Shown: piece by piece, positions 1,131-18,821 of the stretch
Layout: each line of letters opens with the position of its first letter
How positions within the stretch are numbered: the first letter of the stretch is position 1
Source of the DNA: a virus
Taxonomy: Duplodnaviria > Caudoviricetes
IMG/VR virus record: IMGVR_UViG_3300032247_001693
Location: 23,996-87,995 of that record
Strand: one strand, 5' to 3'
Length of the DNA: 64,000 nucleotides
Position numbers and translations under genes: made by a program
The notes under the pieces: model-generated
The model's input: only the letters and a program-made list of their open reading frames with translations
Databases searched by the model: none
Told to the model about the DNA's origin: nothing

Positions 1131-1208
1131 TAAAGTCTTGAGAAATAAGGACTTACGTCGAGCCGGGGCGCCCGGTCTAGCTCTAAGTCTTTTGTTTTCA
1201 ACACTTTA
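1131..1208. repeat. 78-bp four-arm element, copy 1
   Basis: taaagtctt-gagaaat-aaggactta N28 taagtcttt-tgttttc-aacacttta. Confidence 0.9.
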
Positions 1209-1213
1209 CGTCA

Positions 1214-1286
1214 GGTGGCTAGTGGGATTTGAACCCACAACCTACAGGATCACAACCTATCGCTCTGCCAATTGAGCTATAGCCAC
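1214..1286 (-). tRNA. tRNA-His(GTG)
   Basis: Acceptor GTGGCTA/TAGCCAC, loop TTGTGAT. Confidence 0.92.
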
Positions 1287-1288
1287 AG

Positions 1289-1375
1289 CGGAATATGAAA
1301 GAATCGAACTTTCACCGGTTTTACCCGGCCAATTTTAGCAAAATTGTGCAGCGAACCAGTATCTGCCTATATTCC
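1289..1375 (-). tRNA. tRNA-Ser(GCT)
   Basis: Loop TTGCTAA, long variable arm, acceptor GGAATAT/ATATTCC. Confidence 0.92.
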
Positions 1376-1393
1376 AAATTTTCTATCTATAAG

Positions 1394-1465
1394 CTGTGAG
1401 GGTCAGAGTCGGACTGACATTGACCAAATTAACAGTTTGGGGCATTACCATTATGCTACCTCACA
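1394..1465 (-). tRNA. tRNA-Asn(GTT)
   Basis: Loop CTGTTAA, acceptor TGTGAGG/CCTCACA; atypical T-loop TCCGACT. Confidence 0.88.
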
Positions 1466-1469
1466 ATAA

Positions 1470-1542
1470 ATACCCAGGTAGGATTCAAACCTACAACCTA
1501 GGGAACCAAAATCCCTTGCTCTATCAGTTAAGCTACTGGGTA
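1470..1542 (-). tRNA. tRNA-Gln(TTG)
   Basis: Loop TTTTGGT, acceptor TACCCAG/CTGGGTA. Confidence 0.88.
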
Positions 1543-1545
1543 AAA

Positions 1546-1755
1546 CTACCTATCTCTATGACTTCCACTATCTTTTTTACTTTCTCTCAAATATTTAGAA
1601 GCCTCAATCAACCAATACCCCATCATTTCTAGCTTTTCAGCCTCTTTACCAGTTAGGTAAGATGCTACATGAATAAAGGCATACTCAATTTTACCCTTAG
1701 AAACAATCTCTAAGGTTCCAAATGTTGGATCACTAAATTTTTCTGGTTTATCCAT
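1546..1755 (-). CDS. hypothetical protein
   Basis: ORF with GGAG RBS between tRNAs. Confidence 0.65.
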   Translation of the reverse strand: MDKPEKFSDPTFGTLEIVSKGKIEYAFIHVASYLTGKEAEKLEMMGYWLIEASKYLRESKKDSGSHRDR

Positions 1756-1770
1756 AAAGTCTCCACCTAA

Positions 1771-1843
1771 AGCCGATGATCAGAGTCGAACTGATGACAG
1801 GCAGTTTACAAAACTGCTACTCTACCAACTGAGTTACATCGGC
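1771..1843 (-). tRNA. tRNA-Thr(TGT)
   Basis: Loop TTTGTAA, acceptor GCCGATG/CATCGGC. Confidence 0.92.
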
Positions 1844-1893
1844 AACATACCTATTATAATCAATAACCTTGATCTCGCAAGTATTGTTGACGC

Positions 1894-2250
1894 TCACCGG
1901 AGCGTGTACGGGTTCGTCGTGGACGGGAATCGTGCGATCCGCTCCCGCTCAGGTGCGTATTGTGTCCCATTGGGAGTTCCCAACGCTTCTTGATCTTGAT
2001 TGTAACGTTCTCGTATTTGCGGCGGCTGGTCATACCATTTTCCATCTGTGTAATAGTACCAAATTTTGTCATTATTAGGATCATACGCTACATGGTACAG
2101 GTAATAGCGTACTGATTTTAACTGATGATCGCTCAATTGTTCTGTGGTCATTACCACAGGATGATTTTTTCTATAATCCTTATACTCACCATACACCAAC
2201 ATGCCCAAACCAATCAGGCCCGCCACTAGTTGTACCACATACTGCTTCAT
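1894..2250 (-). CDS. hypothetical protein with N-terminal membrane anchor
   Basis: Hydrophobic N-terminus, AAGGAG RBS. Confidence 0.6.
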   Translation of the reverse strand: MKQYVVQLVAGLIGLGMLVYGEYKDYRKNHPVVMTTEQLSDHQLKSVRYYLYHVAYDPNNDKIWYYYTDGKWYDQPPQIRERYNQDQEALGTPNGTQYAPERERIARFPSTTNPYTLR

Positions 2251-2275
2251 CTGTCAAGTTCTCCTTTAAGATATT

Positions 2276-2302
2276 TATCGGCAGTCTGGGGTGGATTCTT
2301 GA
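2276..2302 (-). promoter_or_regulatory. stand-alone sigma28-like promoter
   Basis: TCAAG-N15-GCCGATAA with no TTGACA in the usual position. Confidence 0.6.
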
Positions 2303-2415
2303 GGAATTGGGTAGTGAAACTCGTAAATTGGGTAGCAAATTGGGTAGTGGGGAGGGGTTTTCCCGAAAGGGCTAGTTTCCGATGACGGAAAATGTGGTTT
2401 TAAGGAAAACTGATG

Positions 2416-2493
2416 TAAGTCTATATGGGTTAAGGGTTTAGAGCGAATCCGGCCCGCCCCGCTCGCCCTAAGTCCTTATGGGACAAGGGTTTG
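2416..2493. repeat. 78-bp element, copy 2
   Basis: taagtctat-atgggtt-aagggttta N28 taagtcctt-atgggac-aagggtttg. Confidence 0.9.
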
Positions 2494-2504
2494 CGGCAAG
2501 TCGG

Positions 2505-2711
2505 CTATTTCCCGCCAACAGGATAGTTATAATTGTATGTATCTAGATCAATTTCTGTATGATCATATTCCTTATAACGTTTACATCTTTGGCAGTAGCA
2601 AGATAATGTGGTAAGGAAAGTACACTCTGTTGGTGTATGATTTGTGGTATTTTCACAATTAGCACACATAAATACATGTCTTACTGCACGATCATCAATT
2701 TGTCGCCACAT
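2505..2711 (-). CDS. small Cys-rich (putative zinc-binding) protein
   Basis: CxxC...CxCxxC. Confidence 0.65.
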   Translation of the reverse strand: MWRQIDDRAVRHVFMCANCENTTNHTPTECTFLTTLSCYCQRCKRYKEYDHTEIDLDTYNYNYPVGGK

Positions 2712-2720
2712 ATTAAACTC

Positions 2721-2951
2721 CTAAGAAATTGTCCATTTAGCTTGTCTTACTACTGCCTCTGTGGGCAACACGATAGTATCGGGTTGGGCTGTTGAATAAT
2801 CTCGAAATCCCCGTTCGTCAAGATAGAAGTTCTCATGAAGAGTATCATCTTTATTACTTTCCCATAGTACATCCGCCGCTGCTTCTAGTGGAGGTTTATC
2901 TGTACTATAGATTAGGTGAAGGGTGCCCGATTGAATGTAATACTTAGCCAT
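2721..2951 (-). CDS. hypothetical protein
   Basis: ORF, GGAG RBS. Confidence 0.7.
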   Translation of the reverse strand: MAKYYIQSGTLHLIYSTDKPPLEAAADVLWESNKDDTLHENFYLDERGFRDYSTAQPDTIVLPTEAVVRQAKWTIS

Positions 2952-3093
2952 TATTCATAATCTCCTCTAGATTGTTAATCAAAAGTTGAATATCTTTAGA
3001 AAAAGCGGGCTCTTGAGCTTGATTCAAATCTCTATACAAAGTTAGAGCATCTAGAATAATAAACATATCATGTTTTTCAATATGGTAGTTCAT
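2944..3093 (-). CDS. 49-aa hypothetical protein (below ORF-track cutoff)
   Basis: Hand translation MNYHIEKHDMF...; overlaps the next start. Confidence 0.55.
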   Translation of the reverse strand: MNYHIEKHDMFIILDALTLYRDLNQAQEPAFSKDIQLLINNLEEIMNNG

Positions 3094-3166
3094 TTTAACC
3101 TTTCAATGGTTGGAAAAAGTCACCCCTCTATGTCAATTTGGTGTATATAAACATAAGGAGATTACT

Positions 3167-3754
3167 ATGAAAAAAACGCCACAAGATCAGATAGATCGTA
3201 ATGTCAAATGGGCCAAAAACAACTCTAATAAGGTTCGTGAATACAAAAGAAAATATAAACAAGAACAAAAAGAATTATTGAAACAATATGTTAAAGAAAC
3301 TAAAGAGCATAATGGTTGTAAAATTTGTGGTTGTATAAATATTAATTGTTTAGATTTTCATCATCGTATTGACTCCAATAAAAAAGATACTATTTGTAAT
3401 CTCGTTAGACATGCTTATTCTTTATCTGTAGTTAAAGAAGAAATCGAAAAATGCGATATAATCTGCTCTAACTGTCATAGGACTCAACACTATACTGGTA
3501 GATATATGAGAAATAAAAAGAATATTAAAATTCATAATCTTAAACAGAGAAGTAAATGTTTACACTGCGGATGTAATAAAGTTGAATGTTTAGATTTTCA
3601 TCACTCATCAGACAAAACAGATGGCATAGGTTCGATGATTAGAGATAAAATGATATCTATAGAACAGTTAGAGACAGAGATAAAGAAATGTATTATACTC
3701 TGCTCTAACTGCCATAGGATACTTCATTCTAATGACAAGGGAAAAGAACATTAG
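3167..3754 (+). CDS. HNH endonuclease-like protein with two tandem HNH/Zn domains
   Basis: Two copies of CxxCG..CLDFHH..K..I...E.xKCxxxCSNCHR.xH; AGGAG RBS before ATG 3167. Confidence 0.85.
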   Translation: MKKTPQDQIDRNVKWAKNNSNKVREYKRKYKQEQKELLKQYVKETKEHNGCKICGCININCLDFHHRIDSNKKDTICNLVRHAYSLSVVKEEIEKCDIICSNCHRTQHYTGRYMRNKKNIKIHNLKQRSKCLHCGCNKVECLDFHHSSDKTDGIGSMIRDKMISIEQLETEIKKCIILCSNCHRILHSNDKGKEH

Positions 3755-4436
3755 GCTTATTTCCATCCAAACACATTTTACAGGCTTGTCCCTCTTTAGT
3801 ACCAGTACAAGTTACAAAATCCCGACCCTTACGAATTTCTGGACATGTTACAAACTTCTCACCGTGTAATACAACCAGTTTTGGTAGTGCTTTTCTCCAG
3901 ATATCAGCCTTAATCTTACTCTTAGGCCGCTTAGGAGCAATCTTTTGGTCACTATCGCACCATGCGAATTTAGTAAATCCCTTACTCTTAGCAAGATTCA
4001 TATCGTGTTCATTATGAATACTAGCAAAGATAGAAAAATACTTACTAAGTGCCACCAGCCTTGAATCATACACATGAGTATAAAACCACATATCGGGTAG
4101 TTCGATACCATCAGAAATAATACTCTCACAGGCCCATGTTACATTCTCTACAAATTCAACGTCAAGTTCCCCATTTTTGTACCAATCCCCACGTTCCATG
4201 AAACGAATACTTTTATCTTTTTTGATAGCGTCAAGTATCATGGCCCGAATACGATTCTTTTCAGTAATCATATTAACAAAACCAGCCACCCGAGCATTTT
4301 TATACTGTCTCTCTGTTGCTTCCGCATAACAGCCATTATCTAGAAATACGCAAGATGATGGACAGGTGTCGCCAACTGGCCTACTAACTACCAGACAATT
4401 CTTACCTAACTTATCGTTACCGTTTGCAACTTTCAT
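3729..4436 (-). CDS. Cys-rich phage protein, GP88-like (possible Fe-S/radical-SAM-related fold)
   Basis: GNxK..SRPVGDTCPxxC.....CYA N-terminus, C-terminal C..C..C..C..H; family from memory only. Confidence 0.55.
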   Translation of the reverse strand: MKVANGNDKLGKNCLVVSRPVGDTCPSSCVFLDNGCYAEATERQYKNARVAGFVNMITEKNRIRAMILDAIKKDKSIRFMERGDWYKNGELDVEFVENVTWACESIISDGIELPDMWFYTHVYDSRLVALSKYFSIFASIHNEHDMNLAKSKGFTKFAWCDSDQKIAPKRPKSKIKADIWRKALPKLVVLHGEKFVTCPEIRKGRDFVTCTGTKEGQACKMCLDGNKPNVLFPCH

Positions 4437-4462
4437 GATCTTTTTCTCCCTTGTGTCCACTG

Positions 4463-4503
4463 ATTATACAGTAGATATCGGCACTGTCAAGGGGGATTCT
4501 TTA
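4463..4503 (-). promoter_or_regulatory. overlapping sigma70 and sigma28-like promoter
   Basis: TTGACA-N16-TATAAT; TAAAG-N16-GCCGATA. Confidence 0.7.
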
Positions 4504-4512
4504 AAAAATCTT

Positions 4513-4528
4513 TGGCATGATATTTGCT
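4513..4528 (+). promoter_or_regulatory. sigma54 -24/-12-like site
   Basis: TGGCAT-GATAT-TTGCT. Confidence 0.6.
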
Positions 4529-4583
4529 AGTGTTAAAATGTGTAAGCTAGGGCCAACATTGTTGGTTTAGCTGGAACTTTACC

Positions 4584-4661
4584 TAAGTCTATATTCTATA
4601 AGGACTTACAACAAACCGGGGCGCCCGCCCTTGAGCTAAGTCTTTTAGCAGCAAGGGTTTA
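4584..4661. repeat. 78-bp element, copy 3
   Basis: taagtctat-attctat-aaggactta N28 taagtcttt-tagcagc-aagggttta. Confidence 0.9.
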
Positions 4662-4671
4662 GGTCATTAGG

Positions 4672-4947
4672 TCAACCACTAGGATAATCGGGCGGAACTG
4701 GTCGGCTAGGCTTTTTTGTTGGCCTATCCATCACTCCATCATCAATCATCCACCACGGAGCAGTCAGCCTATCAATGAAGCCCAAAGATTCATGTTTGAG
4801 GATTACATCTAGCTCTGCTGGATCACCGGGAGAAGAGCAATACTCTCCACAACCAACTCCAATACTGTGACCATAATACCAGATACCCTGACCATCTTCG
4901 GGTTGCTTATCAAAAAAACTGATCCACTGATTTTCAATAGCAGTCAT
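4672..4947 (-). CDS. hypothetical protein
   Basis: ORF; start at GGAG-preceded ATG. Confidence 0.65.
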   Translation of the reverse strand: MTAIENQWISFFDKQPEDGQGIWYYGHSIGVGCGEYCSSPGDPAELDVILKHESLGFIDRLTAPWWMIDDGVMDRPTKKPSRPVPPDYPSG

Positions 4948-5155
4948 AAATATCTCCATCAATTTCGTCAATGCCTAAACTCGCCCCAACACCATAATCC
5001 CCGTCAGCTGTCCTAGCAAGCCGGGACTCAATAAAATCCTGAGCATCTGCTAAATCTTGAAATTTTAGCGGGGCGTCAGGATGAAAAGCGATCCATCCAT
5101 CTTTGCCAATTCGTTCCCCATCATAAGGCCCGCCACAAACAATCACGACAAACAT
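4934..5155 (-). CDS. hypothetical protein
   Basis: ORF, GGGAG RBS, after promoter. Confidence 0.7.
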   Translation of the reverse strand: MFVVIVCGGPYDGERIGKDGWIAFHPDAPLKFQDLADAQDFIESRLARTADGDYGVGASLGIDEIDGDIYDCY

Positions 5156-5178
5156 TTTAGTTTCTCCCTTGTTGTCTC

Positions 5179-5219
5179 ATTCTACATTCTATATCGACAA
5201 TGTCAAGGGGTAGTCTTGA
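5179..5219 (-). promoter_or_regulatory. overlapping sigma70 and sigma28-like promoter
   Basis: TTGACA-N16-TAGAAT; TCAAG-N16-GTCGATA. Confidence 0.7.
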
Positions 5220-5236
5220 AAATTTCAGGATAGGCG

Positions 5237-5314
5237 TAAAGTCTTTAAGAATAAGGACTTAGGAGAAATGGGGCCGCCCGCTCTTGACGTAAGTCTTTAC
5301 GTTCTAAGGCTTTA
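5237..5314. repeat. 78-bp element, copy 4
   Basis: taaagtctt-taagaat-aaggactta N28 taagtcttt-acgttct-aaggcttta. Confidence 0.9.
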
Positions 5315-5359
5315 GGGAAAGTCTCGCATAGGGATTCTATAATAGCTTGTTGCATTTTT

Positions 5360-5596
5360 TCAAGGCTTGTCATATGCAAAGTATCCATGTACTACAATGA
5401 TATTGTCATTTTCATCGAAAAAAGTAAAACTTCCATCTGCCAAACCAACAGCATTCGCTTGATGATGTTTTTGAAACAAACAGTTACCCTCAAGTTTCAT
5501 AAATACAGTTCCACTCTCATTTTCAGTTACGAATATTTCACCGGAATTAATATCTGTGAATTTTTCAACTTCGACTGGTCTTGGTATAATTTTCAT
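5360..5596 (-). CDS. hypothetical protein, probable paralog of 5599-5805
   Basis: Shared F.D/T...G..F...K.E...NA..L/M.DGS...F pattern. Confidence 0.7.
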   Translation of the reverse strand: MKIIPRPVEVEKFTDINSGEIFVTENESGTVFMKLEGNCLFQKHHQANAVGLADGSFTFFDENDNIIVVHGYFAYDKP

Positions 5597-5598
5597 TT

Positions 5599-5805
5599 TT
5601 ACTCCTCTACAAAGATTCCCTCTACAGGAATAACACCATGTGATTGTGTGAAACTATCTTGACTCCCATCTTCCATTCTAATAGCATTCATATTAAAATA
5701 GGTTTCACATTTTACATAAAGTCTATTGCACCATTTAAAAAGATCGCCACACTTAAGTGTATCAAAATTTACTACATGGCGGTACTGTTTATATCTGATT
5801 TTCAT
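5599..5805 (-). CDS. hypothetical protein, probable paralog of 5360-5596
   Basis: See above. Confidence 0.7.
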   Translation of the reverse strand: MKIRYKQYRHVVNFDTLKCGDLFKWCNRLYVKCETYFNMNAIRMEDGSQDSFTQSHGVIPVEGIFVEE

Positions 5806-5933
5806 TAGTTAGTTACCTCGATTTGCCACTTGTTATTAACGGATTCCACCACGATCACATTCATATTCAGTTTAACCAGTTCTGCCACAATCTTTGCCAA
5901 ACTCTCAACATCATTCATATTCAGATAGATCAT
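5805..5933 (-). CDS. 42-aa hypothetical protein
   Basis: Hand translation; TAATG stop/start coupling at both ends. Confidence 0.55.
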   Translation of the reverse strand: MIYLNMNDVESLAKIVAELVKLNMNVIVVESVNNKWQIEVTN

Positions 5934-6097
5934 TACGTCCTCATAGATATATTCATCCAAGCTTCGATCACCTCAGACACCGTTATACCATACTCCTTCG
6001 CTAAAGTCAAGACCTCATCTGTACGAGGCTTGCAAACAGCGGCCATAGGACTTTTCAAAACTTTCAAAATCTTAACTATTGCTTCGTCTTTAGTCAT
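5933..6097 (-). CDS. 54-aa hypothetical protein
   Basis: Hand translation MTKDEAIVKI...; coupled to downstream ORF. Confidence 0.55.
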   Translation of the reverse strand: MTKDEAIVKILKVLKSPMAAVCKPRTDEVLTLAKEYGITVSEVIEAWMNISMRT

Positions 6098-6395
6098 AAG
6101 TCACCCCTATATGAAAACCAGCGAATCTTTTACGTTCCGATTCTATAGTCCACACCACCGATTTGCTTTGTTTCCCTCGGCTTTGGAATAAGTGTGGAAA
6201 CCGCCCACGACATTAGCCTTAGAGAATGATCTTTTCTCCTTGCTTATGCTATTATTTAACGGTTACTGGTTGTATTATAATGGCAGAGTTTTTAGCCTAT
6301 CGCTGGTTTGATGTTATCTCCCCATATCAATTAAGACAAGGATGGGAAGGGCGAACTCTTTTAATCCTAACCTATTATCTAGAAACCATTGTATT

Positions 6396-6524
6396 GTGGT
6401 GGCTGGGAATCAAACCCAGTAGATTGGCATTACTATCCGACGTTAGCCCCGTCAGAAGCGTGCCATCTCAATAAGGCATAGCTTGTCGTATGGGCTATCC
6501 CAATCTAATCATCAGACCCACCAT
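6396..6524 (-). ncRNA. candidate tRNA-like structured RNA
   Basis: Terminal stem TGGTGG/CCACCA, T-arm CTGGG-TTTGATT-CCCAG, 8-bp stem TAGATTGG/CCAATCTA enclosing three hairpins; no ORF. Confidence 0.55.
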
Positions 6525-6533
6525 TGTTGTATT

Positions 6534-6680
6534 GTGAAGGCGGATGGATTCGTCTTGAGCTATCATTGAACTTCCTACAGTTCTCGGCTCGCAACTTGAC
6601 CATCTACATAACTTACCTGCTTATCCGCGTAGGGGCAGATGCTATCGGTGAGTTGCTCCGTGCAACCTTGCAACCTTCAT
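6534..6680 (-). ncRNA. candidate structured RNA starting at the predicted TSS
   Basis: Terminal stem TGAAGG/CCTTCA, internal hairpins, 5' end 7 nt from the -10 box. Confidence 0.5.
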
Positions 6681-6686
6681 GCTATC

Positions 6687-6714
6687 ATTATACTCTTTTT
6701 ATCGACCATGTCAA
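6687..6714 (-). promoter_or_regulatory. sigma70-type promoter with internal GTCGATA
   Basis: TTGACA-N16-TATAAT. Confidence 0.75.
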
Positions 6715-6754
6715 CCCCACAGCTAGAGAAAATCTAAAAATTTTGAGAATGCTC

Positions 6755-6832
6755 TAAGTGGTTATTCTGTAAGGACTTACGGCGATCCGGGGCGCCCGCC
6801 CTATCCCTAAGTTCTTTAAGGATAAGGACTTA
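6755..6832. repeat. 78-bp element, copy 5
   Basis: taagtggtt-attctgt-aaggactta N28 taagttctt-taaggat-aaggactta. Confidence 0.9.
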
Positions 6833-6835
6833 CGA

Positions 6836-7015
6836 CTAGTAGTCTTCGGCCTCAATAAACTCATCACATTCATAATTAGAGTTGGATAGAACTTCCGGGC
6901 GATATTTGCTCAACACTTTATCAGCACATTTCCCACAAACTCTAGCAAGGGGAATTCCACGGGCATCAGTTTCCCACCAACTACTCTCACCAGACCCACA
7001 ATTACAAACTTTCAT
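6836..7015 (-). CDS. 59-aa Cys-containing protein
   Basis: Hand translation MKVCNCGSG..DARGIPLARVCGKC; stop 3 bp from element 5. Confidence 0.65.
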   Translation of the reverse strand: MKVCNCGSGESSWWETDARGIPLARVCGKCADKVLSKYRPEVLSNSNYECDEFIEAEDY

Positions 7016-7024
7016 GATTTTTCC

Positions 7025-7231
7025 TTAGTTGTTGCTAGGATCAATAGAACACAAACCAGAAACCACATTATCTCTTCGAGCAATTTCCAAAGCACTACAG
7101 AAAAATTCAAAAAAAATCTCCAACTCATTACGAACATCTGGTTCACTACCGGTAGATGCAGCATTGAACAAATTAACTGCAAATTCGGCCACTCTATCAC
7201 GAGCAGCAGTCCGCTCTTCATGCGTCAACAT
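7025..7231 (-). CDS. hypothetical protein
   Basis: ORF, AGGA RBS. Confidence 0.65.
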   Translation of the reverse strand: MLTHEERTAARDRVAEFAVNLFNAASTGSEPDVRNELEIFFEFFCSALEIARRDNVVSGLCSIDPSNN

Positions 7232-7233
7232 AA

Positions 7234-7440
7234 CTACTTCCTATTTGTCAAAGTTTTACGACGGCGAATCTCATCAGCACAATAGCAAATCTCATCTGCA
7301 TAATACCCATGATTGGGGGTATCGGGCCAAACGCTCAAAACCTCACCACAATCCTTGATCACAAAATTCAACTCATCTATAGTCATCTTCTTAACCTTAC
7401 GACTATACATAGCATGATCAAAGATTTTTGTCATCGACAT
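7234..7440 (-). CDS. hypothetical protein
   Basis: ORF; start refined. Confidence 0.6.
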   Translation of the reverse strand: MSMTKIFDHAMYSRKVKKMTIDELNFVIKDCGEVLSVWPDTPNHGYYADEICYCADEIRRRKTLTNRK

Positions 7441-7573
7441 TTTCCACTTTCTCCACATACAAGTTTGAACCGAACAATTTTTGAGCTTTAAATAAAGCCC
7501 CGGCTTCGTGCAAATGCTCCACATATCCCACAAACTTACAATTCTGCACAACTCTCCAGATATATTTACTCAT
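7418..7573 (-). CDS. hypothetical protein
   Basis: ORF; GAGG RBS before ATG 7573. Confidence 0.55.
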   Translation of the reverse strand: MSKYIWRVVQNCKFVGYVEHLHEAGALFKAQKLFGSNLYVEKVENVDDKNL

Positions 7574-7829
7574 CGTCTTCCTCTTCATCATCGCCACCAA
7601 ACATCTTGTCCCAATATTCCTTATCGAATCCGGTAATACAAACCTCCCTATCGTCCACAGACAAATAAGGAAAGCACTCTTGAATCAGACCTCCATTCAT
7701 GTAGCGGTTGAGATCAACCAGATTGACTGTCAAATTGACAGCTTTTCCGCCAAGACTCTTACCAGACAAAACCACAGAACCACCATCTTCGCTAAGAGTC
7801 CGACTGAAATTGTTCAAAGCGTACATCAT
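7566..7829 (-). CDS. hypothetical protein, acidic C-terminus
   Basis: ORF, AGGAG RBS. Confidence 0.7.
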   Translation of the reverse strand: MMYALNNFSRTLSEDGGSVVLSGKSLGGKAVNLTVNLVDLNRYMNGGLIQECFPYLSVDDREVCITGFDKEYWDKMFGGDDEEEDDE

Positions 7830-7853
7830 AATTCTTCTCCTTGTGTTCCTCGT

Positions 7854-7896
7854 ATTCTACACAACTCTTATCGTCCTGTCAAGAGGCTAATCTTAA
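7854..7896 (-). promoter_or_regulatory. overlapping sigma70 and sigma28-like promoter
   Basis: TTGACA-N17-TAGAAT; TTAAG-N16-GACGATAA. Confidence 0.7.
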
Positions 7897-7913
7897 GAAA
7901 AAATAGATTTCTG

Positions 7914-7991
7914 TAAACTGTTGACAAATAAGGACTTACATCAAAACGGGGCGCCCGTCCTCGTCGCAAGTCCTTATGCGACAAGGGTTTG
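7914..7991. repeat. 78-bp element, copy 6
   Basis: taaactgtt-gacaaat-aaggactta N28 caagtcctt-atgcgac-aagggtttg. Confidence 0.9.
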
Positions 7992-8000
7992 GGTCAAATA

Positions 8001-8381: not shown

Positions 8382-8420
8382 TTTCTACTCCTCTTTGATT
8401 TTTATCCGTTCTGTTCTATC

Positions 8421-9159: not shown

Positions 9160-9168
9160 TGGCTTTCT

Positions 9169-12024: not shown

Positions 12025-12042
12025 TATTTTCCTTTTCCTTTT

Positions 12043-12201
12043 CTAACCAAACATCTCGTACTCTTCATCAGTCAACGCCACCTCATCTGGACGATAACAT
12101 CCGTTACCATGCAAATCACGATTAGTAGGACGCTTTTCCCACTCATCCATAAATCGCTTGTTTTCAATACGACGCTTTTCTTCTTCATTCTTCTCTATCA
12201 T
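12043..12201 (-). CDS. hypothetical protein
   Basis: ORF; start refined to GAGG-preceded ATG. Confidence 0.55.
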   Translation of the reverse strand: MIEKNEEEKRRIENKRFMDEWEKRPTNRDLHGNGCYRPDEVALTDEEYEMFG

Positions 12202-12226
12202 TTGTCTTCCTCTTTCTTGTTCTATC

Positions 12227-12267
12227 ATTCTACACCTATCATCGGTAGTTGTCAAGCCCCCTCTTTA
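12227..12267 (-). promoter_or_regulatory. overlapping sigma70 and sigma28-like promoter
   Basis: TTGACA-N17-TAGAAT; TAAAG-N16-ACCGATG. Confidence 0.65.
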
Positions 12268-12285
12268 AGAAAAATGCGTTTGATG

Positions 12286-12363
12286 TAAGTTGTTGAGAAA
12301 TAAACACTTAGGACAAATCGGCCCGCCCGCTTTCGCCCTAAGTCCTTTATGGACAAGGGTTTG
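12286..12363. repeat. 78-bp element, copy 11
   Basis: taagttgtt-gagaaat-aaacactta N28 taagtcctt-tatggac-aagggtttg. Confidence 0.9.
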
Positions 12364-12372
12364 CGGTTAGTC

Positions 12373-12669
12373 TCAAAAATCCCCATCATCTAGGTGCCAA
12401 TCATCGGGTTGGTCGGCATCACACCCATAGCCCCCAAAATCGTCATCCCCGTAGCTCCCGTAGTCCTCATCAGTGCCAAAACCGGCACTTGATAGGGCGG
12501 ATTCGTGGTCGCCGTCCATAGAATCATCATAATCTTCATCCTCATCATCCCAATCACAATCATCATCTTCCCAATCGTCATCTTCATCCCAATCATCATC
12601 ATCATCATCAAAATAGCCCTCAACTTCGTTTTCGTAGTCGTAGTCGTGAAGGGGGTCAGGATGGCTCAT
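12373..12669 (-). CDS. extremely acidic (Asp-rich) protein
   Basis: Poly-D/E tracts with W/Y/F; GGAG RBS. Confidence 0.7.
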   Translation of the reverse strand: MSHPDPLHDYDYENEVEGYFDDDDDDWDEDDDWEDDDCDWDDEDEDYDDSMDGDHESALSSAGFGTDEDYGSYGDDDFGGYGCDADQPDDWHLDDGDF

Positions 12670-12728
12670 CTTAAAAACTCCAAAGGGTTAGGACTGATGG
12701 ATGTAGTATACCGGGACAAAAACAATTG

Positions 12729-12902
12729 TCAAGAGGTCTGATACTCGTATGGTACAAATTCTTCAACGATCCCCACAGCTTCGGCCCAATCCCAAAAATT
12801 GATTTCAAGATTAGGATCGTCGATAGGCTCGACCATCATCTCAAGGATAGAATCATCACCCAACTGATTCAGCACCAGATTCATTTCATCCAAATTGAAC
12901 AT
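12729..12902 (-). CDS. 57-aa acidic protein
   Basis: Hand translation MFNLDEMNLV...; follows promoter at 12942. Confidence 0.55.
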   Translation of the reverse strand: MFNLDEMNLVLNQLGDDSILEMMVEPIDDPNLEINFWDWAEAVGIVEEFVPYEYQTS

Positions 12903-12941
12903 AGTAGAATTCCTTGATAGGGTTATCGGCCTGATGAAATC

Positions 12942-12969
12942 ATTCTACTAAGTATATCGACAAGGTCAA
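12942..12969 (-). promoter_or_regulatory. sigma70-type promoter with internal GTCGATA
   Basis: TTGACC-N16-TAGAAT. Confidence 0.65.
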
Positions 12970-13013
12970 GAGCATCCCCTTAAATATTTTTCTTGCAATA
13001 TCTTAAGGTAGCG

Positions 13014-13091
13014 TAAAGTCTTGAAGAATAAGGACTTACGTCAAAAGCGGGCGCCCGCCCTAGCTGCAAGTCTTTTGCAGATAAGGACTTA
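13014..13091. repeat. 78-bp element, copy 12
   Basis: taaagtctt-gaagaat-aaggactta N28 caagtcttt-tgcagat-aaggactta. Confidence 0.9.
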
Positions 13092-13094
13092 CGT

Positions 13095-13466
13095 TCAGTC
13101 TTCAATTTCGCGGAAAATTGAGATTTCCAACCCAGATGCCATAATGGCAGCATACTGTTCGACCATAGCTGCCACTCTGTCAGATGATCCCGGCTTGCCA
13201 ACTGGCAGCAACATTAGGTCATCAGCGTTTTTCAGTCTCTTATTGACTTTTTCTTTCTTGCTGGTAGAAATTTTCTTCAAGGCTTTTTGATTGAACTTCA
13301 AAACTTTTTCCGTAACCAACACCCTCTTTCGGGTGGCTAGTTCACAAGAGTAGGTTTCATCCTCGATTACCAGATGGTCTGCAATCTCAACCATATCGGG
13401 AATCGCTAGACCCAGGAAACAATTGCGGGCCTGCCGCTTTGCTCTCTCAACAATCTCAAATTTCAT
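13095..13466 (-). CDS. hypothetical protein, paralog of 15010-15327
   Basis: MKFxIVExAKRQARNCFLGxAIP...EKVLKFNxKALK shared. Confidence 0.75.
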   Translation of the reverse strand: MKFEIVERAKRQARNCFLGLAIPDMVEIADHLVIEDETYSCELATRKRVLVTEKVLKFNQKALKKISTSKKEKVNKRLKNADDLMLLPVGKPGSSDRVAAMVEQYAAIMASGLEISIFREIED

Positions 13467-13550
13467 CGTAAAATCCCTTGTGAAGTTAGAACTTGTCTCG
13501 ATATTCTACAGGAAGATTCAAGCCTTGTCAACCTTACAATACCGCAAGGT

Positions 13551-13745
13551 TTACGCATCTTCCCACTTATGTTCGGACTGATTATAAATCTTCACCTGCT
13601 CAACGCCGGTCTTCACCACCACCGCTTTGCGAACATCCATCCAATCCTTACCCGAAAACGGCCCAAGATACTTGCCATCGACGGTGAACACGCAGAAATT
13701 CTTGACTTTCATATTTTTCTCACTGGGTTTGGTTTTGGTACTCAT
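13551..13745 (-). CDS. hypothetical protein (start 13745 or 13712)
   Basis: ORF after promoter. Confidence 0.55.
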   Translation of the reverse strand: MSTKTKPSEKNMKVKNFCVFTVDGKYLGPFSGKDWMDVRKAVVVKTGVEQVKIYNQSEHKWEDA

Positions 13746-13751
13746 GTCATC

Positions 13752-13791
13752 ATTATACACTCTTATCGGCATTTGTCAATAGCGATCTTGA
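13752..13791 (-). promoter_or_regulatory. overlapping sigma70 and sigma28-like promoter
   Basis: TTGACA-N16-TATAAT; TCAAG-N16-GCCGATAA. Confidence 0.7.
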
Positions 13792-13809
13792 AGAATTTTG
13801 ATATTGATC

Positions 13810-13887
13810 TAAGTTGTTGAAAAATAAGGACTTACGACGATCCGGGGCGCCCGCCCTTGCCGCAAGTCCTTTGAGGCTAAGGGTTTA
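13810..13887. repeat. 78-bp element, copy 13
   Basis: taagttgtt-gaaaaat-aaggactta N28 caagtcctt-tgaggct-aagggttta. Confidence 0.9.
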
Positions 13888-14157
13888 GGAGCGATGTAAT
13901 TTTGGGTCGTTTTTTGAGCCACGATAGAAACGATCACGGGAAGCTTCCGCCATCGGGCAGGAAAATCCCATTTTGTTTCTCCACCGGAGCAAACTTTTGA
14001 TAGCTGCCCCAGTTTCACCATTAACTACATCTTCTGTCACAACAATAGTACCGTCTTCAACTTTGACCAGAGCAACTAGCGTCTTACCCTGTTGTGGACG
14101 CACCACAATTGTCAAGCCATTAGAGGCCCGATCTATTTCGCATTGTCGAAGTTTCAT
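13885..14157 (-). CDS. hypothetical protein
   Basis: ORF; stop codon lies in the last arm of element 13. Confidence 0.6.
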   Translation of the reverse strand: MKLRQCEIDRASNGLTIVVRPQQGKTLVALVKVEDGTIVVTEDVVNGETGAAIKSLLRWRNKMGFSCPMAEASRDRFYRGSKNDPKLHRS

Positions 14158-14166
14158 AGGCCACCA

Positions 14167-14337
14167 TTAAATTGCCTTATTGATTTTGTGATAAAGAGCC
14201 TTCAATCTCTCTAATTCATCCTCATAAGAAACATTTGTTTCTTTGGTACTATACTCATACGTCTTAAGAATCTCAACCTTTTTCATCCGCGACATAACAG
14301 ACATACTCAGGTCAAACAATTCAGAAGGACTAAACAT
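14167..14337 (-). CDS. 56-aa hypothetical protein
   Basis: Hand translation; AAGGAG RBS. Confidence 0.55.
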   Translation of the reverse strand: MFSPSELFDLSMSVMSRMKKVEILKTYEYSTKETNVSYEDELERLKALYHKINKAI

Positions 14338-14459
14338 TACCAACTCCTTTTTAGGTTACTTACTACTATATCGACATTTTACCCTGTAGATTCCAGTTTG
14401 TCAAGAAAAATCTTTCCTTGCAAAACCTACAGATTAACCCATCTTCAACAGACCCCCTA

Positions 14460-14509
14460 TTCTCGCTGACTATACCACATAGCCGCAAATCCGGAGGATT
14501 AGGAAAAAC
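14460..14509. repeat. ~48-bp dispersed repeat, copy 3 of 3
   Basis: TCTCGCTGACTATACCACATAGCCGCAAATCCGGAGGATTAGGAAAAAC. Confidence 0.75.
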
Positions 14510-14852
14510 AATGAAGACCCCCCCTTCAGACCCAAGCCACCGCCCAAAACCCCCAAACCTCCCAGACTACCCAACTACCACAACCACCCCAACTACCCCA
14601 GACTTCCTAGAATTCATATCCTGTATAGCCTTCACAGTATACGGGAGCATAGTTCACCTAATTGATAAGGATTGCAAAGATAATTCCGCAAATCAGACAA
14701 ATCCCCAAAATCGCCCTATCTTTCCTACTCATCCTATTTCCCCTATCTTCTATTAGTTTTCCAATCTGCTTCTATTACCATATATCGTCCATTTTACCAT
14801 CCAAACTTGAACTTGTCAAACCTTAAAATTTCGTAAGGTAGATCATTCGTCG

Positions 14853-14930
14853 TAAGTGCTTGAAGAATAAAGACTTACGTCAAGGTGGGGCGGCCCGTTT
14901 TGCTCTAAGTCCTTATTTTTCAACACTTTA
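14853..14930. repeat. 78-bp element, copy 14
   Basis: taagtgctt-gaagaat-aaagactta N28 taagtcctt-atttttc-aacacttta. Confidence 0.9.
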
Positions 14931-15009
14931 TGTCAAGTGCTAAAACTAGTGGACAAAAGACCACCACCCCCACCAGAGAGGTAGTGTACATGCTTATCCC
15001 CCGTTGGGG

Positions 15010-15327
15010 TTATGCAACCTCCCCAAAGGCGGAGAGTTCCAACCGAGCCACCACACCATATTGAGCGGCCAGCAGTTCAACACGCTCACGCGAACCGGGG
15101 AGAGTACCACCAGCAGAAATCATGAGATCATCACCCCTACTCATGCGGGGGTCATTCTTGACCTTTGCAACCTTGCCAGCATTCTTCAAGGCTTTGCGAT
15201 TGAACTTCAAAACCTTCTCAACCACCACCATCTCTCCGTCGATGTTCTTAGCTTCGGAAGGGATAGCGATTCCCAAAAAGCAGTTACGGGCTTGACGCTT
15301 GGCATTTTCTACGATTGCAAACTTCAT
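15010..15327 (-). CDS. hypothetical protein, paralog of 13095-13466
   Basis: Start refined (GAGG RBS); shared N-terminus. Confidence 0.75.
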   Translation of the reverse strand: MKFAIVENAKRQARNCFLGIAIPSEAKNIDGEMVVVEKVLKFNRKALKNAGKVAKVKNDPRMSRGDDLMISAGGTLPGSRERVELLAAQYGVVARLELSAFGEVA

Positions 15328-15569
15328 TTTCACATCCTCAAGGTTTCTCATTCTCATACCCCTATTATACAGGGGAGTTTTGGAATTGCAAGCACAAAGT
15401 TTCCTTAAATTTTCGTAAGGTAGTCGAAAGCTCTGGAAACCGCAGTATCCAAAAACCCCCGCACAATCTCCCCACCAGCCTTGAAAACTTCGTGTACGGT
15501 GTAGGTGAGGAATGCACAAAAGGTCAGTATACAGGTGATCATTACGATATCGTAGAGCATGTTTTCCTC

Positions 15570-15791
15570 TTAAGCTACTTTGATGAAAATTTCGACTACG
15601 CCAGACTTCGTTGACAGTGTGACCAGAAATTTCCGACCGCTACCATCTTCAATCCTCATACCATTTACCAAACCAATGAATGGCATATCTACTGAATCAT
15701 ACAGCAGAATTTCATACCGACCACGCATAGCCTCTACAATATCGCTCAAAAGATAGACCTTGCGAATCGAGCGGGGTACTACAGTGTTCAT
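15570..15791 (-). CDS. hypothetical protein
   Basis: ORF, AAGGA RBS. Confidence 0.7.
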   Translation of the reverse strand: MNTVVPRSIRKVYLLSDIVEAMRGRYEILLYDSVDMPFIGLVNGMRIEDGSGRKFLVTLSTKSGVVEIFIKVA

Positions 15792-15820
15792 TTTTCTTTT
15801 TCCTTTTTCTCTACTGGTTA

Positions 15821-15855
15821 TATCGTCATTATACAGGGGAAACTTTAGTTGTCAA
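15821..15855 (-). promoter_or_regulatory. sigma70 promoter with downstream-shifted sigma28-like promoter
   Basis: TTGACA-N16-TATAAT; TAAAGTTT-N12-GACGATA. Confidence 0.7.
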
Positions 15856-15858
15856 GTC

Positions 15859-16062
15859 CTATTCACCATCATATCCGACATACCAAATCTCACCTTTTTC
15901 ATCAGCCATTTTCTTGAATCCCTTTTTTGCCATGTGACGATCTTGAATGAAATTATCTACAATTCCAAAAGCCTGAGCCATCAGCCAGAAGCCTACCGTC
16001 ATGGAAAGATAGATGGTGGCAATCAGAGCGATCCAGCAGAGAGCAATTATGAGGCTTGTCAT
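15859..16062 (-). CDS. small membrane protein
   Basis: Long hydrophobic N-terminal segment. Confidence 0.65.
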   Translation of the reverse strand: MTSLIIALCWIALIATIYLSMTVGFWLMAQAFGIVDNFIQDRHMAKKGFKKMADEKGEIWYVGYDGE

Positions 16063-16098
16063 TTTCTTATTCCTGTTTTTTCTTTTCCCTACGTCTTA

Positions 16099-16133
16099 TA
16101 TCGTCATTATACAGGCTTTTCTTTAGCCGTCAA
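16099..16133 (-). promoter_or_regulatory. sigma70 promoter with downstream-shifted sigma28-like promoter
   Basis: TTGACG-N16-TATAAT; TAAAG-N15-GACGATA. Confidence 0.7.
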
Positions 16134-16187
16134 GCATATTTTCCAGAATTTTCGGAATATAATTTCATGCCAAACATAATTTTTCTT

Positions 16188-16222
16188 TGGCATGTTATTT
16201 GCTCTTTGCAAAAGTTGTGCCA
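16188..16222. promoter_or_regulatory. head-to-head pair of sigma54 -24/-12-like sites
   Basis: +TGGCATGTTATTTGCT, 3-bp gap, -TGGCACAACTTTTGCA. Confidence 0.65.
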
Positions 16223-16247
16223 AACTCAAAAAAATATGGATTCGACG

Positions 16248-16325
16248 TAAGTGCTTGAAGAATAAGGACTTAGAGATAGCCGGGGCGGGCCGATTCGACG
16301 TAAGTCCTTTGGTGGTAAGGGTTTA
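16248..16325. repeat. 78-bp element, copy 15
   Basis: taagtgctt-gaagaat-aaggactta N28 taagtcctt-tggtggt-aagggttta. Confidence 0.9.
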
Positions 16326-16426
16326 CGTCAAGTGGCCTTTTCGCATCCCTCGTCCGTGGGGGTAGTTCCACCATAAGGCAGATCTTCCCCCCGGCTGGGG
16401 AGTGTACGTTTGGTTACCCCCCAAAA

Positions 16427-16657
16427 TCAGTAGTAGATAAAATCGTTGACGATATTTCCTGCAATGTCAACCCCGATGAATTCATCCTCATCATCGCATG
16501 GGAAAAAATTCCTGATTTCCATTCCACTACCAAAAGCTTCAACCAAAAGAGCCCCACCAATACGGGCGATTCCCACCAGAGTATCGGGAGAGGAAGAATC
16601 TTCCCCATAGAGCAATTCATTCAGTTCGGCACGGGTGTTGATGGTGATCATTTTCAT
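16427..16657 (-). CDS. hypothetical protein, paralog of 18292-18519
   Basis: MITINxRxELNExLYG....DTLVGxARxGG.LL.EA...DxxIYY shared. Confidence 0.75.
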   Translation of the reverse strand: MKMITINTRAELNELLYGEDSSSPDTLVGIARIGGALLVEAFGSGMEIRNFFPCDDEDEFIGVDIAGNIVNDFIYY

Positions 16658-16694
16658 TTTTCCTTTTTCTACTGGTCTTTTCTCTTGTGTTTCA

Positions 16695-16723
16695 ATTATA
16701 CAGAGTATATCGTCCCCTGTCAA
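16695..16723 (-). promoter_or_regulatory. sigma70-type promoter with internal GACGATA
   Basis: TTGACA-N17-TATAAT. Confidence 0.75.
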
Positions 16724-16923
16724 GCCCCCACCTTAGAAAAATATCGGACAAATTCCAGCCGAATATCTTCACGATTGAAAGGGAATTTTCCGTTGTAGGT
16801 ATCGTTCCACATCTTCTCTACCATTGGCATAGCATCCATCCAAGTTTCGGCTGTTACGAATCCGAAACTCCACTCGCCACGGGAGGTTGCGACCAAAATC
16901 TCAAATTGAATTTCATTTTTCAT
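16720..16923 (-). CDS. hypothetical protein
   Basis: ORF; start refined. Confidence 0.65.
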   Translation of the reverse strand: MKNEIQFEILVATSRGEWSFGFVTAETWMDAMPMVEKMWNDTYNGKFPFNREDIRLEFVRYFSKVGA

Positions 16924-16962
16924 TTTCATTTCCTTCTCTTGTGTTTTCCCTGTCATGCTTTC

Positions 16963-16990
16963 ATTATACAGAGTATATCGGCAGTGTCAA
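16963..16990 (-). promoter_or_regulatory. sigma70-type promoter with internal GCCGATA
   Basis: TTGACA-N16-TATAAT. Confidence 0.7.
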
Positions 16991-17045
16991 GAAAATTCTG
17001 GAATATTTTTGAAATATAATTTCGTGCCAAATAAAATTTTTCTTG

Positions 17046-17080
17046 TGGTATGATATTTGCTAGTAGCGAATGCTGTGCCA
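17046..17080. promoter_or_regulatory. head-to-head pair of sigma54-like sites
   Basis: +TGGTATGATATTTGCT, 3-bp gap, -TGGCACAGCATTCGCT. Confidence 0.6.
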
Positions 17081-17140
17081 AAGTTTCCTTACAATTTCGT
17101 AAGGTTGGCGCAACCCCATCAGTTTAGCTAATACTAGACG

Positions 17141-17218
17141 TAAGCTCTTGAGAAATAAGGACTTAGGTCGAGCCGGGGCGCCCCGTTTTGACGCAAGTCC
17201 TTTGGTGGCAAGACTTTA
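17141..17218. repeat. 78-bp element, copy 16
   Basis: taagctctt-gagaaat-aaggactta N28 caagtcctt-tggtggc-aagacttta. Confidence 0.9.
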
Positions 17219-17296
17219 CGTCGAATGGGTTTTGAGTAGTGAACAACCATACAGACCACCCCCCAAATAGGGTAGTGTACAGATGATCACCCCGCC

Positions 17297-17530
17297 TTAG
17301 ATATACTTCTTGACTCCCCACTTGTAAGCAGTGATACGCTTACCCTCAATTCTCACCTTCCCAGTCTTCTTACTAGTGATCCTCAATTCTGCCTTGCTAC
17401 CATCAGCACAATCAGCACAACGGTAGTAGACATCAAATCGATCATCCTTGCTCCAATTGATCACGATCATGCTGACATCCTCATTACGCAGGATGAAATT
17501 TGTGGTAGTACGATTGATGCTGCTATTCAT
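17297..17530 (-). CDS. hypothetical protein
   Basis: ORF after promoter at 17567-17595. Confidence 0.65.
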   Translation of the reverse strand: MNSSINRTTTNFILRNEDVSMIVINWSKDDRFDVYYRCADCADGSKAELRITSKKTGKVRIEGKRITAYKWGVKKYI

Positions 17531-17652
17531 GGGATCGAATCCTAGTAGGTTAATGGGTCTCTCACCATTCTACATTCATTATCGTCTATCGTCAAGCCTC
17601 CCCAATAAAAATTCTTCAAATATAATCTTGTGCCAAAAAACCTTTTTCTATT

Positions 17653-17687
17653 TGGTATACCATTTGCTCTATGCAAGTATCGTGCCA
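17653..17687. promoter_or_regulatory. head-to-head pair of sigma54-like sites
   Basis: +TGGTATACCATTTGCT, 3-bp gap, -TGGCACGATACTTGCA (full consensus). Confidence 0.65.
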
Positions 17688-17712
17688 AACCGTGAAAAAT
17701 TTTCATTTGACG

Positions 17713-17790
17713 TAAGTGTTTGATACATAAGGACTTAGAGCTATCCGGGGCCGCCCGATTTGACGTAAGTCCTTTATTCATAAGGGTTTA
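17713..17790. repeat. 78-bp element, copy 17
   Basis: taagtgttt-gatacat-aaggactta N28 taagtcctt-tattcat-aagggttta. Confidence 0.9.
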
Positions 17791-17882
17791 CGTCAAGCCT
17801 GTGTTCACTACTGTACATACCAACACATACGCCCCCCATTAGGGGAGTGTACGCTTGGCTACCCTGCCATGTGGGGGTTGTG

Positions 17883-18092
17883 TCAGCCCCCCTCATCTTC
17901 GGGCGACCAGTCTACATCGTCAGGATCAACACCATCAAAAGCGTCAAGATCATAAACGTCCCCATCCTCAAAATTCTCAATATCCTCATCACCATCCTCA
18001 AACACCACATCACAATGTTCCCAGCAGCAGGGACACAACTCAAGATCGGCCACATCTATCACCACCTCTACACCACAGCATTCGCTCTTCAT
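17883..18092 (-). CDS. small acidic protein with N-terminal Cys cluster
   Basis: SECCG...CPCCWEHC then D/E-rich tail; AAGGA RBS. Confidence 0.7.
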   Translation of the reverse strand: MKSECCGVEVVIDVADLELCPCCWEHCDVVFEDGDEDIENFEDGDVYDLDAFDGVDPDDVDWSPEDEGG

Positions 18093-18291
18093 TGTCTTAT
18101 TCCTTTTCCTGAGCCTGCAATTCGATAACCAATTTCCAGCACACATCAAACGTCACATGACGGGCCACTACCTTGCCACCGTACCACACTTCATATCGGT
18201 CGCCCGTGCGATTTGAAGTATTCCAGTAGATCATTTTTTTGCTCATTGAATTATTGTAGGGAAATTTTCTAGCCCTGTCAACCCCCCAAAA

Positions 18292-18519
18292 TCAGTAGTA
18301 GATGCAATCGTCAACCACGATTCCGTTCGCGTCAACTTCAATCCATTCACCTTCATCTCCCATTGGGAAGAAACCAGTGATCTGGCGGAAATCAGTTTCC
18401 AAAGCTTCGGAGAGCAATTCTCCACCAAAACGGGCGACACCAACCAAAGTGTCATAATGTTCGGTAGTCCCACCATAAAGGATTTCGTTCAGTTCGGTGC
18501 GATTGTTGATGGTGATCAT
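18292..18519 (-). CDS. hypothetical protein, paralog of 16427-16657
   Basis: Start refined; shared sequence. Confidence 0.75.
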   Translation of the reverse strand: MITINNRTELNEILYGGTTEHYDTLVGVARFGGELLSEALETDFRQITGFFPMGDEGEWIEVDANGIVVDDCIYY

Positions 18520-18562
18520 TTTCGTTGTCCTTTTTTCTATCGTTCTCTTCTCTTCTTCTACC

Positions 18563-18602
18563 ATTATACAGACTCTATCGACGCTTGCAAGCAAAATCTT
18601 GA
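18563..18602 (-). promoter_or_regulatory. overlapping sigma70 and sigma28-like promoter
   Basis: TTGCAA-N16-TATAAT; TCAAG-N15-GTCGATA. Confidence 0.65.
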
Positions 18603-18655
18603 AAATTTTCAAAATATAATTTCGTACCAAATAAAAAAATTTTTTTCTATCCGAA

Positions 18656-18724
18656 TGGCACACAATTTGCTCTATGCAAAAGTTATGCCAAACAAAATTA
18701 TTCCGTTTTGGCACAAAATTTGCT
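18656..18724. promoter_or_regulatory. three sigma54-like sites (head-to-head pair plus one)
   Basis: +TGGCACACAATTTGCT, -TGGCATAACTTTTGCA, +TGGCACAAAATTTGCT. Confidence 0.65.
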
Positions 18725-18743
18725 AGCGCGGATCGATTTGACG

Positions 18744-18821
18744 TAAAGTGTTGATATATAAGGACTTAGAACGAGCGGGGGCGTCCGGATTTGACGTAAG
18801 TCCTTTAGATATAAGGGTTTA
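18744..18821. repeat. 78-bp element, copy 18
   Basis: taaagtgtt-gatatat-aaggactta N28 taagtcctt-tagatat-aagggttta. Confidence 0.9.

Follow-up and report, generated by a model that had tools for sequence, protein, structure and literature searches.

What does a tailed phage do with a 78-bp DNA element that it repeats, always in the same geometry, within a single region of its genome? The question arises from a 64,000-nucleotide stretch of viral DNA (Duplodnaviria; Caudoviricetes), positions 23,996 to 87,995 of IMG/VR record IMGVR_UViG_3300032247_001693, which we call the window. Each of its 18 copies, all of whose coordinates were re-checked, consists of two inverted-repeat sites (two 9-bp arms around a 7-bp spacer) separated by a 28-bp linker, (9-7-9)-28-(9-7-9), with no indel. 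These starts and this layout agree at every copy with an earlier sequence-only reading, whose lead was a recombination site. The answer that we favor is a different one: the element would be a pair of sites for a DNA-bending protein of the host, of the integration host factor (IHF) type, and would act on neighboring promoters.

A chance origin of the copies can be excluded, since a profile search of positions 1-19000 recovered 36 single sites compared to a mean of 0.04 (maximum 1) in 100 order-2 Markov simulations. Beyond these 18, the same profile revealed no other double copy anywhere in the window. On the whole 88-kb contig it added three copies to the left of the window (contig positions 21490, 22382, and 23531; 21 copies in total) and a lone single site at contig position 18286, with no element elsewhere. 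Column, pairing, and arm statistics were calculated from 196 unique copies. The near-invariant letters of each half are only YAA, TT, AA, and TTR, giving the two-fold symmetric consensus YAA-N4-TT-N7-AA-N4-TTR; this refines the 9-bp arm consensus proposed earlier, as the middle four letters of each arm vary. The TT and AA steps (element positions 8-9 and 17-18, likewise 61-62 and 70-71) are 83-98% conserved, and the inner arms are more strongly conserved than the outer ones. The arm middle prefers GTCC, and conserved CG/YG extensions outside the arms bring each half-site to about 37 bp. The central 9 bp are 96% GC, yet comprise 82 distinct core sequences, and the whole 78-mer is an imperfect palindrome. 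Among the window copies, left spacers recur (4, 3, and 3 times) and all 18 right spacers differ, as had been reported.

The element is family-wide in phages of 150-245 kb, with one array of ~20 kb per genome. Exact-pattern scans matched 43 and 71 stretches of viral contigs, and in complete relatives (200-245 kb) about 15-21 elements form a single array, located in a block of higher GC content. When single sites were scanned independently, the pair spacing was 53 bp in 365 of 375 close pairs and 52, 54, or 55 bp in the other 10; loci were seeded with the 28-bp pattern, but most counted pairs were not seeds. The fixed spacing claimed from the window is therefore correct for its 18 copies, with rare exceptions among relatives. 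No cultured relative and no similar DNA were found in INPHARED, and no description of the element was found in the papers searched on this element, planctomycete phages, or phage IHF promoters. A loose pattern scan of GTDB genomes was discarded, its matches being mostly chance. One 17.7-kb array-bearing contig (L131, JBJTKU010000149.1) lies in an actinobacterial bin, a Planktophila metagenome-assembled genome (MAG); it is probably a mis-binned phage and was excluded from host assignment.

The conserved letters resemble those of known IHF sites, in which prolines intercalate at a pair of kink dinucleotides, mostly AA, spaced nine bp apart (PMC1874591), and which follow the consensus WATCARnnnnTTR, with TTR four bp past WATCAA (PMC1874591; 10.1101/382655). 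The element has two AA/TT kink steps nine bp apart. ARnnnnTTR is present in 84-96% of each of the four arms, TTR stands four bp past AA in 97-100% in all four, and the extended half-site is near the IHF footprint of ~35 bp. From these letters, each half can be read as the IHF register written on both strands, and host IHF is the likely binder. The WATC half of the consensus is mostly missing, a loss that a beta-type homodimer would explain: such a dimer would place TTR on both sides and require no WATC, and both features are seen.

A site that is read by a host protein would be expected in the chromosomes of the host as well. We found the symmetric single site 50 times in 35 of 151 Planctomycetota genomes, where the reversed control pattern gave 9 matches and the pattern with an 8-bp spacer gave 4. 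The site occurs once in 151 Pseudomonadota genomes and never in 151 Bacillota genomes. Of 30 inspected chromosomal sites, nine lie no more than about 60 bp from the end or a fragment of a tRNA or tmRNA, and integrase motifs adjoin some of these; others lie upstream of housekeeping genes. Their unconstrained flanks show the same CG/YG preference as the phage copies, making a phage-encoded binder unlikely; the phages searched encode no DNABII protein (PF00216). DNABII proteins are encoded in all 151 Planctomycetota genomes. The DNABII sets of 15 planctomycete genomes were read, and each includes one protein in which R-x-E-x-R aligns to R42/E44/R46 of IHF-beta, a triad that Lynch et al. reportedly identified in 2003 as recognizing TTR. 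The other readable DNABII proteins of these genomes are HU-like, some genomes show only one DNABII, and no IHF alpha-type partner was seen in the planctomycete genomes examined. This phylum-specific evidence is consistent with a host IHF reading the site, and the link to Planctomycetota suggested by the sequence-only reading gains support from it. Two other host arrangements were observed. A repeated chromosomal element of a Phycisphaerae MAG (L090, L118, and L150) has inward-facing arms of the motif 18 bp apart. At L262, L267, L298, and L300, the symmetric site lies inside a long hairpin followed by a T-run, just past planctomycete tRNA-Ser 3' ends, where it may also serve as a terminator at attachment junctions.

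The element is coupled to promoters on one side. A sigma70-type promoter points away from one element side in 118 of 191 copies, compared to 6-8 for the other orientations, and 17 of the 18 window copies have such a promoter within about 155 bp. The distances from element to -35 box cluster at 20, 30-31, 41, 52-56, and 61-65 bp, and their periodicity is significant after removal of near-identical flanks (R 0.60 vs 0.34 for the 99.9% null). At the commonest spacing, the proximal site is centered near -78, and an AT-rich UP-like segment separates it from the promoter. In the IHF-activated promoters lambda PL and Mu Pe, the IHF site is about 70-90 bp upstream and its effect depends on the helical face. 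The copies in the window are as follows.

1131..1208, copy 1, upstream of a tRNA-Trp/Glu unit; -35 box at 1109, 21 bp off
2416..2493, copy 2; no sigma70-like promoter within 320 bp
4584..4661, copy 3; -35 at 4490, 93 bp; sigma54-like box at 4513
5237..5314, copy 4; -35 at 5206, 30 bp
6755..6832, copy 5; -35 at 6714, 40 bp
7914..7991, copy 6; -35 at 7882, 31 bp
8469..8546, copy 7; -35 at 8448, 20 bp
9082..9159, copy 8; -35 at 9050, 31 bp
9519..9596, copy 9; -35 at 9488, 30 bp
10378..10455, copy 10; -35 at 10346, 31 bp
12286..12363, copy 11; -35 at 12255, 30 bp
13014..13091, copy 12; -35 at 12969, 44 bp
13810..13887, copy 13; -35 at 13779, 30 bp
14853..14930, copy 14; -35 at 14819, 33 bp; adjoins an 18-bp palindrome at 14821
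16248..16325, copy 15; -35 at 16133, 114 bp; sigma54-like boxes between, 16188 (+) and 16207 (-)
17141..17218, copy 16; -35 at 16990, 150 bp
17713..17790, copy 17; -35 at 17595, 117 bp; sigma54-like boxes 17653 (+) and 17672 (-)
18744..18821, copy 18, first in transcription order; promoter-like site at 18590; sigma54-like boxes 18656, 18675, and 18709

Based on these observations, we propose the following mechanism. Each 25-bp half would be a symmetric site for a host IHF-type (DNABII) protein, most likely a beta-type homodimer, which would insert its prolines at the TT and AA steps nine bp apart and clamp one TTR flank with each subunit. Since the sites are 53 bp apart, or 5.05 turns, the two U-turns should bend in the same sense. 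The major groove would face inward at the GC-rich core, 26.5 bp (2.5 turns) from both centers. A continuing bend compresses the major groove at that phase, and GC steps favor this compression. Two in-phase U-turns around a GC-rich bend would give the element the shape of a small one-turn loop. Its distance to the -35 box of the strong host-type promoter downstream (20, 30-31, 41, or 52-56 bp) would keep the loop approximately in helical register with that promoter. The loop would tune, by activation or counter-silencing, the early promoters of an accessory-gene region, and the repeats would serve secondarily as seams for the homologous gain, loss, and swapping of cassettes. We lean, by a narrow measure, towards promoter tuning by a host-IHF loop as the main job. 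The fuller picture is more tentative: about 20 nucleosome-like one-turn loops formed by a homodimeric host IHF in register with early promoters, an architectural enhancer or insulator array that could also define a symmetric IHF consensus for Planctomycetota.

Several observations weigh against this proposal. WATC is rare enough (C in 11-63% of arms, the full 13-mer in 0-7%) that membership among IHF sites depends on the register of kinks and TTR together with the argument for a homodimer, and another protein could be the one that recognizes the preferred GTCC and the CG extension. The best-fit period of the promoter distances is 11.8 rather than 10.5, and only 68% of the distances other than 30/31 fall in the favored half-turn. 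Many strong promoters, inside and outside the array (18-42 elsewhere per genome), have no element, so it is not required for promoter function; it appears to modulate the promoters of one region. The host, probably a freshwater planctomycete, is assigned from one gene, encoding a DUF1559 protein.

Some of these points suit other explanations. Host IHF might bind the element for regional DNA organization instead, either topological insulation or road-blocking between very strong tandem units, a role that has been proposed for BIME-1/RIB elements, or compaction and protection of the first-expressed DNA. The restriction of the element to one ~20-kb block, while strong promoters elsewhere go without it, fits such a role, as does its position at the boundaries of units with scarce terminators (17 found vs 13.6 expected), and REP/BIMEs are known to bind IHF and serve as topological insulators (PMC3333891). 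An insulator, however, needs no one-sided, helically phased coupling to the -35 box, and BIME-1 has one IHF site between REP hairpins rather than two around a non-pairing core; we regard organization as the main job as unlikely. A classical operator pair, bound cooperatively at both palindromes by another dimeric protein (another planctomycete regulator, or an early repressor or activator of the phage), is likewise improbable. In its favor, the palindromes have a preferred GTCC center and a CG extension and lack WATC, helical phasing suits any activator, and many conserved phage open reading frames (ORFs) have no family. Against it, isolated TT, AA, and TTR conserved around a free 7-bp center are the pattern of IHF, and host chromosomes carry the site with its flank bias at tRNA ends and housekeeping promoters.

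The sequence-only reading had instead taken the element for a tyrosine-recombinase core or attC-like site for the site-specific shuffling of cassettes. The inverted 9-7-9 layout is indeed that of tyrosine-recombinase cores (inverted arms, 6-8 bp spacer), the copies border gene cassettes, and some copies are chimeric: in relative L020, the left part of window copy 17141 is fused to the right part of copy 17713 and the intervening cassette is absent. Nevertheless, 15 phage records, of which 14 are at least 90% complete, contain no true PF00589 match, and no integron integrase was found among the 14 near-complete genomes, although a host enzyme could act in trans. Searches of 5 phage genomes detected neither a resolvase nor a Y1 transposase (PF01797). 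A weak partial PF00589 match in G002 was rejected: it scored 24 bits, below the cut-off, in a 302-aa ORF that lies in a sugar-metabolism cluster and is unlike an integrase. The attC cores RYYYAAC and GTTRRRY occur in 0 of 196 copies on either strand, nor do these copies show an attC-type conserved single-strand fold with covariation. Spacers are seldom shared between copies of one genome (left 23 of 713 pairs, right 6 of 713). Raw BLAST ends at positions 9-17 and 62 initially suggested spacer crossovers, but 15 triplets of two parents and a chimera have switch points scattered over positions 6 to 82 rather than confined to a 7-bp spacer, several triplets being old and noisy. Because of this scatter, the clustered BLAST ends most likely reflect alignments halting at variable spacers. 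Contigs of relatives have joints both at and away from elements (e.g. 13891 to 14178 in two studies). Between phages whose proteins are 40-85% identical, array gene order is mostly collinear although some cassettes have moved, and cassettes have their own promoters. The recombination-site reading is thus largely refuted, and we consider it very improbable. The phages encode a RecA-family recombinase, and cassette swapping is better regarded as a by-product of homologous recombination, as with the PeSL elements of T4-type phages.

A hairpin in RNA or single-stranded DNA (a terminator, RNase III site, REP-like element, or single-stranded DNA promoter) might be expected of an imperfectly palindromic 78-mer at the ends of transcription units. 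Three possible folds, one long and two local, were compared with the pairing expected from column frequencies, and pairing was no higher than expected in any of them (observed/expected 22.4/22.8, 7.0/7.3, and 7.2/7.5). The highest mutual information is found mostly between adjacent or nearby columns and not between partners in a fold. Chimeras assembled from unrelated copies fold slightly more stably than the real copies, whichever strand is folded (-29 vs -27 kcal/mol), Rfam has no match, the length is fixed, and Y1/RAYT transposases are absent from the 5 genomes. We therefore give a hairpin hardly any credence. The preference of the sequence-only reading for a double-stranded DNA-protein site over an RNA hairpin is borne out, and free variation of linker length with compensatory pairing, which would have spoken against it, is not seen in relatives. 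That reading was also right to name DNA organization as an alternative; it erred in its recombinase lead and missed the IHF match and the promoter phasing.

The genomic context of the element is provided by three features of the window.

315..18714 (-), array of short ORFs and tRNA genes, in small units each with a near-consensus sigma70-type promoter
19357..20466 (-), DUF1559 prepilin-like gene, the host clue, outside the element
24155..29527 (+), terminase large subunit (with a LAGLIDADG insert) and portal, outside the element

The terminase and portal genes identify the contig as a tailed phage, and the named homologs of the DUF1559 gene are from Planctomycetaceae, Pirellulales, and Pirellula. 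The copies lie within a 21-kb block of 41-43% GC, compared to 31-36% in most of the remaining contig, and the array is transcribed away from the structural genes, which begin at 20990. Rfam detected only tRNAs, and Pfam named almost no cassette ORF. A double-domain HNH endonuclease gene (3110-3754, +) is on the opposite strand within the array; it has a close homolog in the array of G002 and a distant one elsewhere in G003. Two paralogous pairs of cassette genes (13095-13466 / 15010-15519 and 16427-16723 / 18292-18714) are conserved family-wide, and the tested members have no Pfam or PHROG match. To the left of the window, contig positions 22479-23453 hold the last cassette gene (73-87% identity among relatives), the start of whose product we take to resemble DUF932-type early genes of plasmids and phages. 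The interval 6230-6700, between copies 4 and 5, is promoter-driven and has no credible ORF and no Rfam match; non-coding RNAs are possible. An ORF of 4772 aa (49675-63993, +), with homologs of 5000-6500 aa in relatives, probably encodes a tape-measure or virion protein. In the first cassettes, C-rich/G-rich hairpins stand between the end of a gene and an element (14962-14986, 16345-16420, 17259-17293, 17832-17860, and 18826-18849); they are probably real terminators, separate from the 78-bp element.

Other motifs accompany the array promoters. Sigma54-type -24/-12 boxes (TGGCAY-N5-TTGCW) occur at 4513, 16188-16222, 17046, 17653-17687, 18656-18690, and 18709; all 9 on the contig are inside the array, several as head-to-head pairs 3 bp apart, and they lie between elements and sigma70 promoters, on the promoter side of the first cassettes. 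In 14 relatives there are 77 matches compared to 7 for controls, often 9-15 bp from an element and pointing into it. An 18-bp palindrome, CCTTAC-N6-GTAAGG, is found beside -35 boxes at 13532, 14821, 15403, and 17087; it is restricted to the array in G001-G003, absent from G004, and is a candidate operator of a phage regulator. Finally, about half of the strong array promoters have CGAT (often GCCGATA) between -35 and -10, e.g. at 13752-13779 and 16963-16990.

The element can be compared with several known systems. With E. coli IHF sites such as lambda H' it shares kinks 9 bp apart, TTR four bp past AA, an extent of about 35 bp, and single sites in the host phylum near tRNA-type attachment junctions and promoters; unlike them, it is symmetric, has mostly lost WATC, and is doubled at 53 bp around a GC core in about 20 copies in one phage region. 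The lambda PL and Mu Pe promoters share with it the upstream IHF site, sigma70 promoter, and AT-rich UP-like segment, but there one promoter has one IHF site, whereas here about 20 promoters have paired symmetric ones. In T4-type phages, the PeSL cassettes of a hyperplastic region likewise contain intergenic repeats together with strong sigma70-type early promoters (Arbiol et al. 2010, PMC2839356), and their chimeras arise by homologous recombination with variable crossover points (PMC2839356). The element shares their strong sigma70-like promoter coupling, variable region, and chimeric copies; PeSLs carry a terminator stem-loop as the repeat, whereas the element has no covarying hairpin and a fixed protein-site geometry phased to the promoter. 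BIME-1 and RIB (RIP) of E. coli are also repeated intergenic IHF-binding modules at transcription-unit ends (PMC3333891), but BIME-1 has one asymmetric IHF site between two REP hairpins and is linked to RAYT, in contrast to two symmetric sites with no hairpin and no Y1 transposase in 5 genomes. Integron attC sites and recombinase cores share the inverted arms, 7-bp spacer, and repeats between cassettes; unlike them, the element has no integrase, attC cores, folding, shared spacers, or fixed crossover, and its cassettes have promoters. In summary, the element would work as an IHF site does and is placed as a PeSL is, and is neither an attC site, a recombinase core, a REP/BIME, nor a PeSL.

These results remove a tempting but wrong reading of the array as a phage integron. 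For Planctomycetota, whose chromatin and phages are little studied, they offer a testable consensus for sequence-specific DNA bending together with a candidate protein, and indicate that a homodimeric IHF could read DNA symmetrically. The control of phage early genes would gain an architectural layer. Moreover, cassette boundaries are marked in a widespread family of uncultured phages, whose accessory genes can thereby be catalogued.

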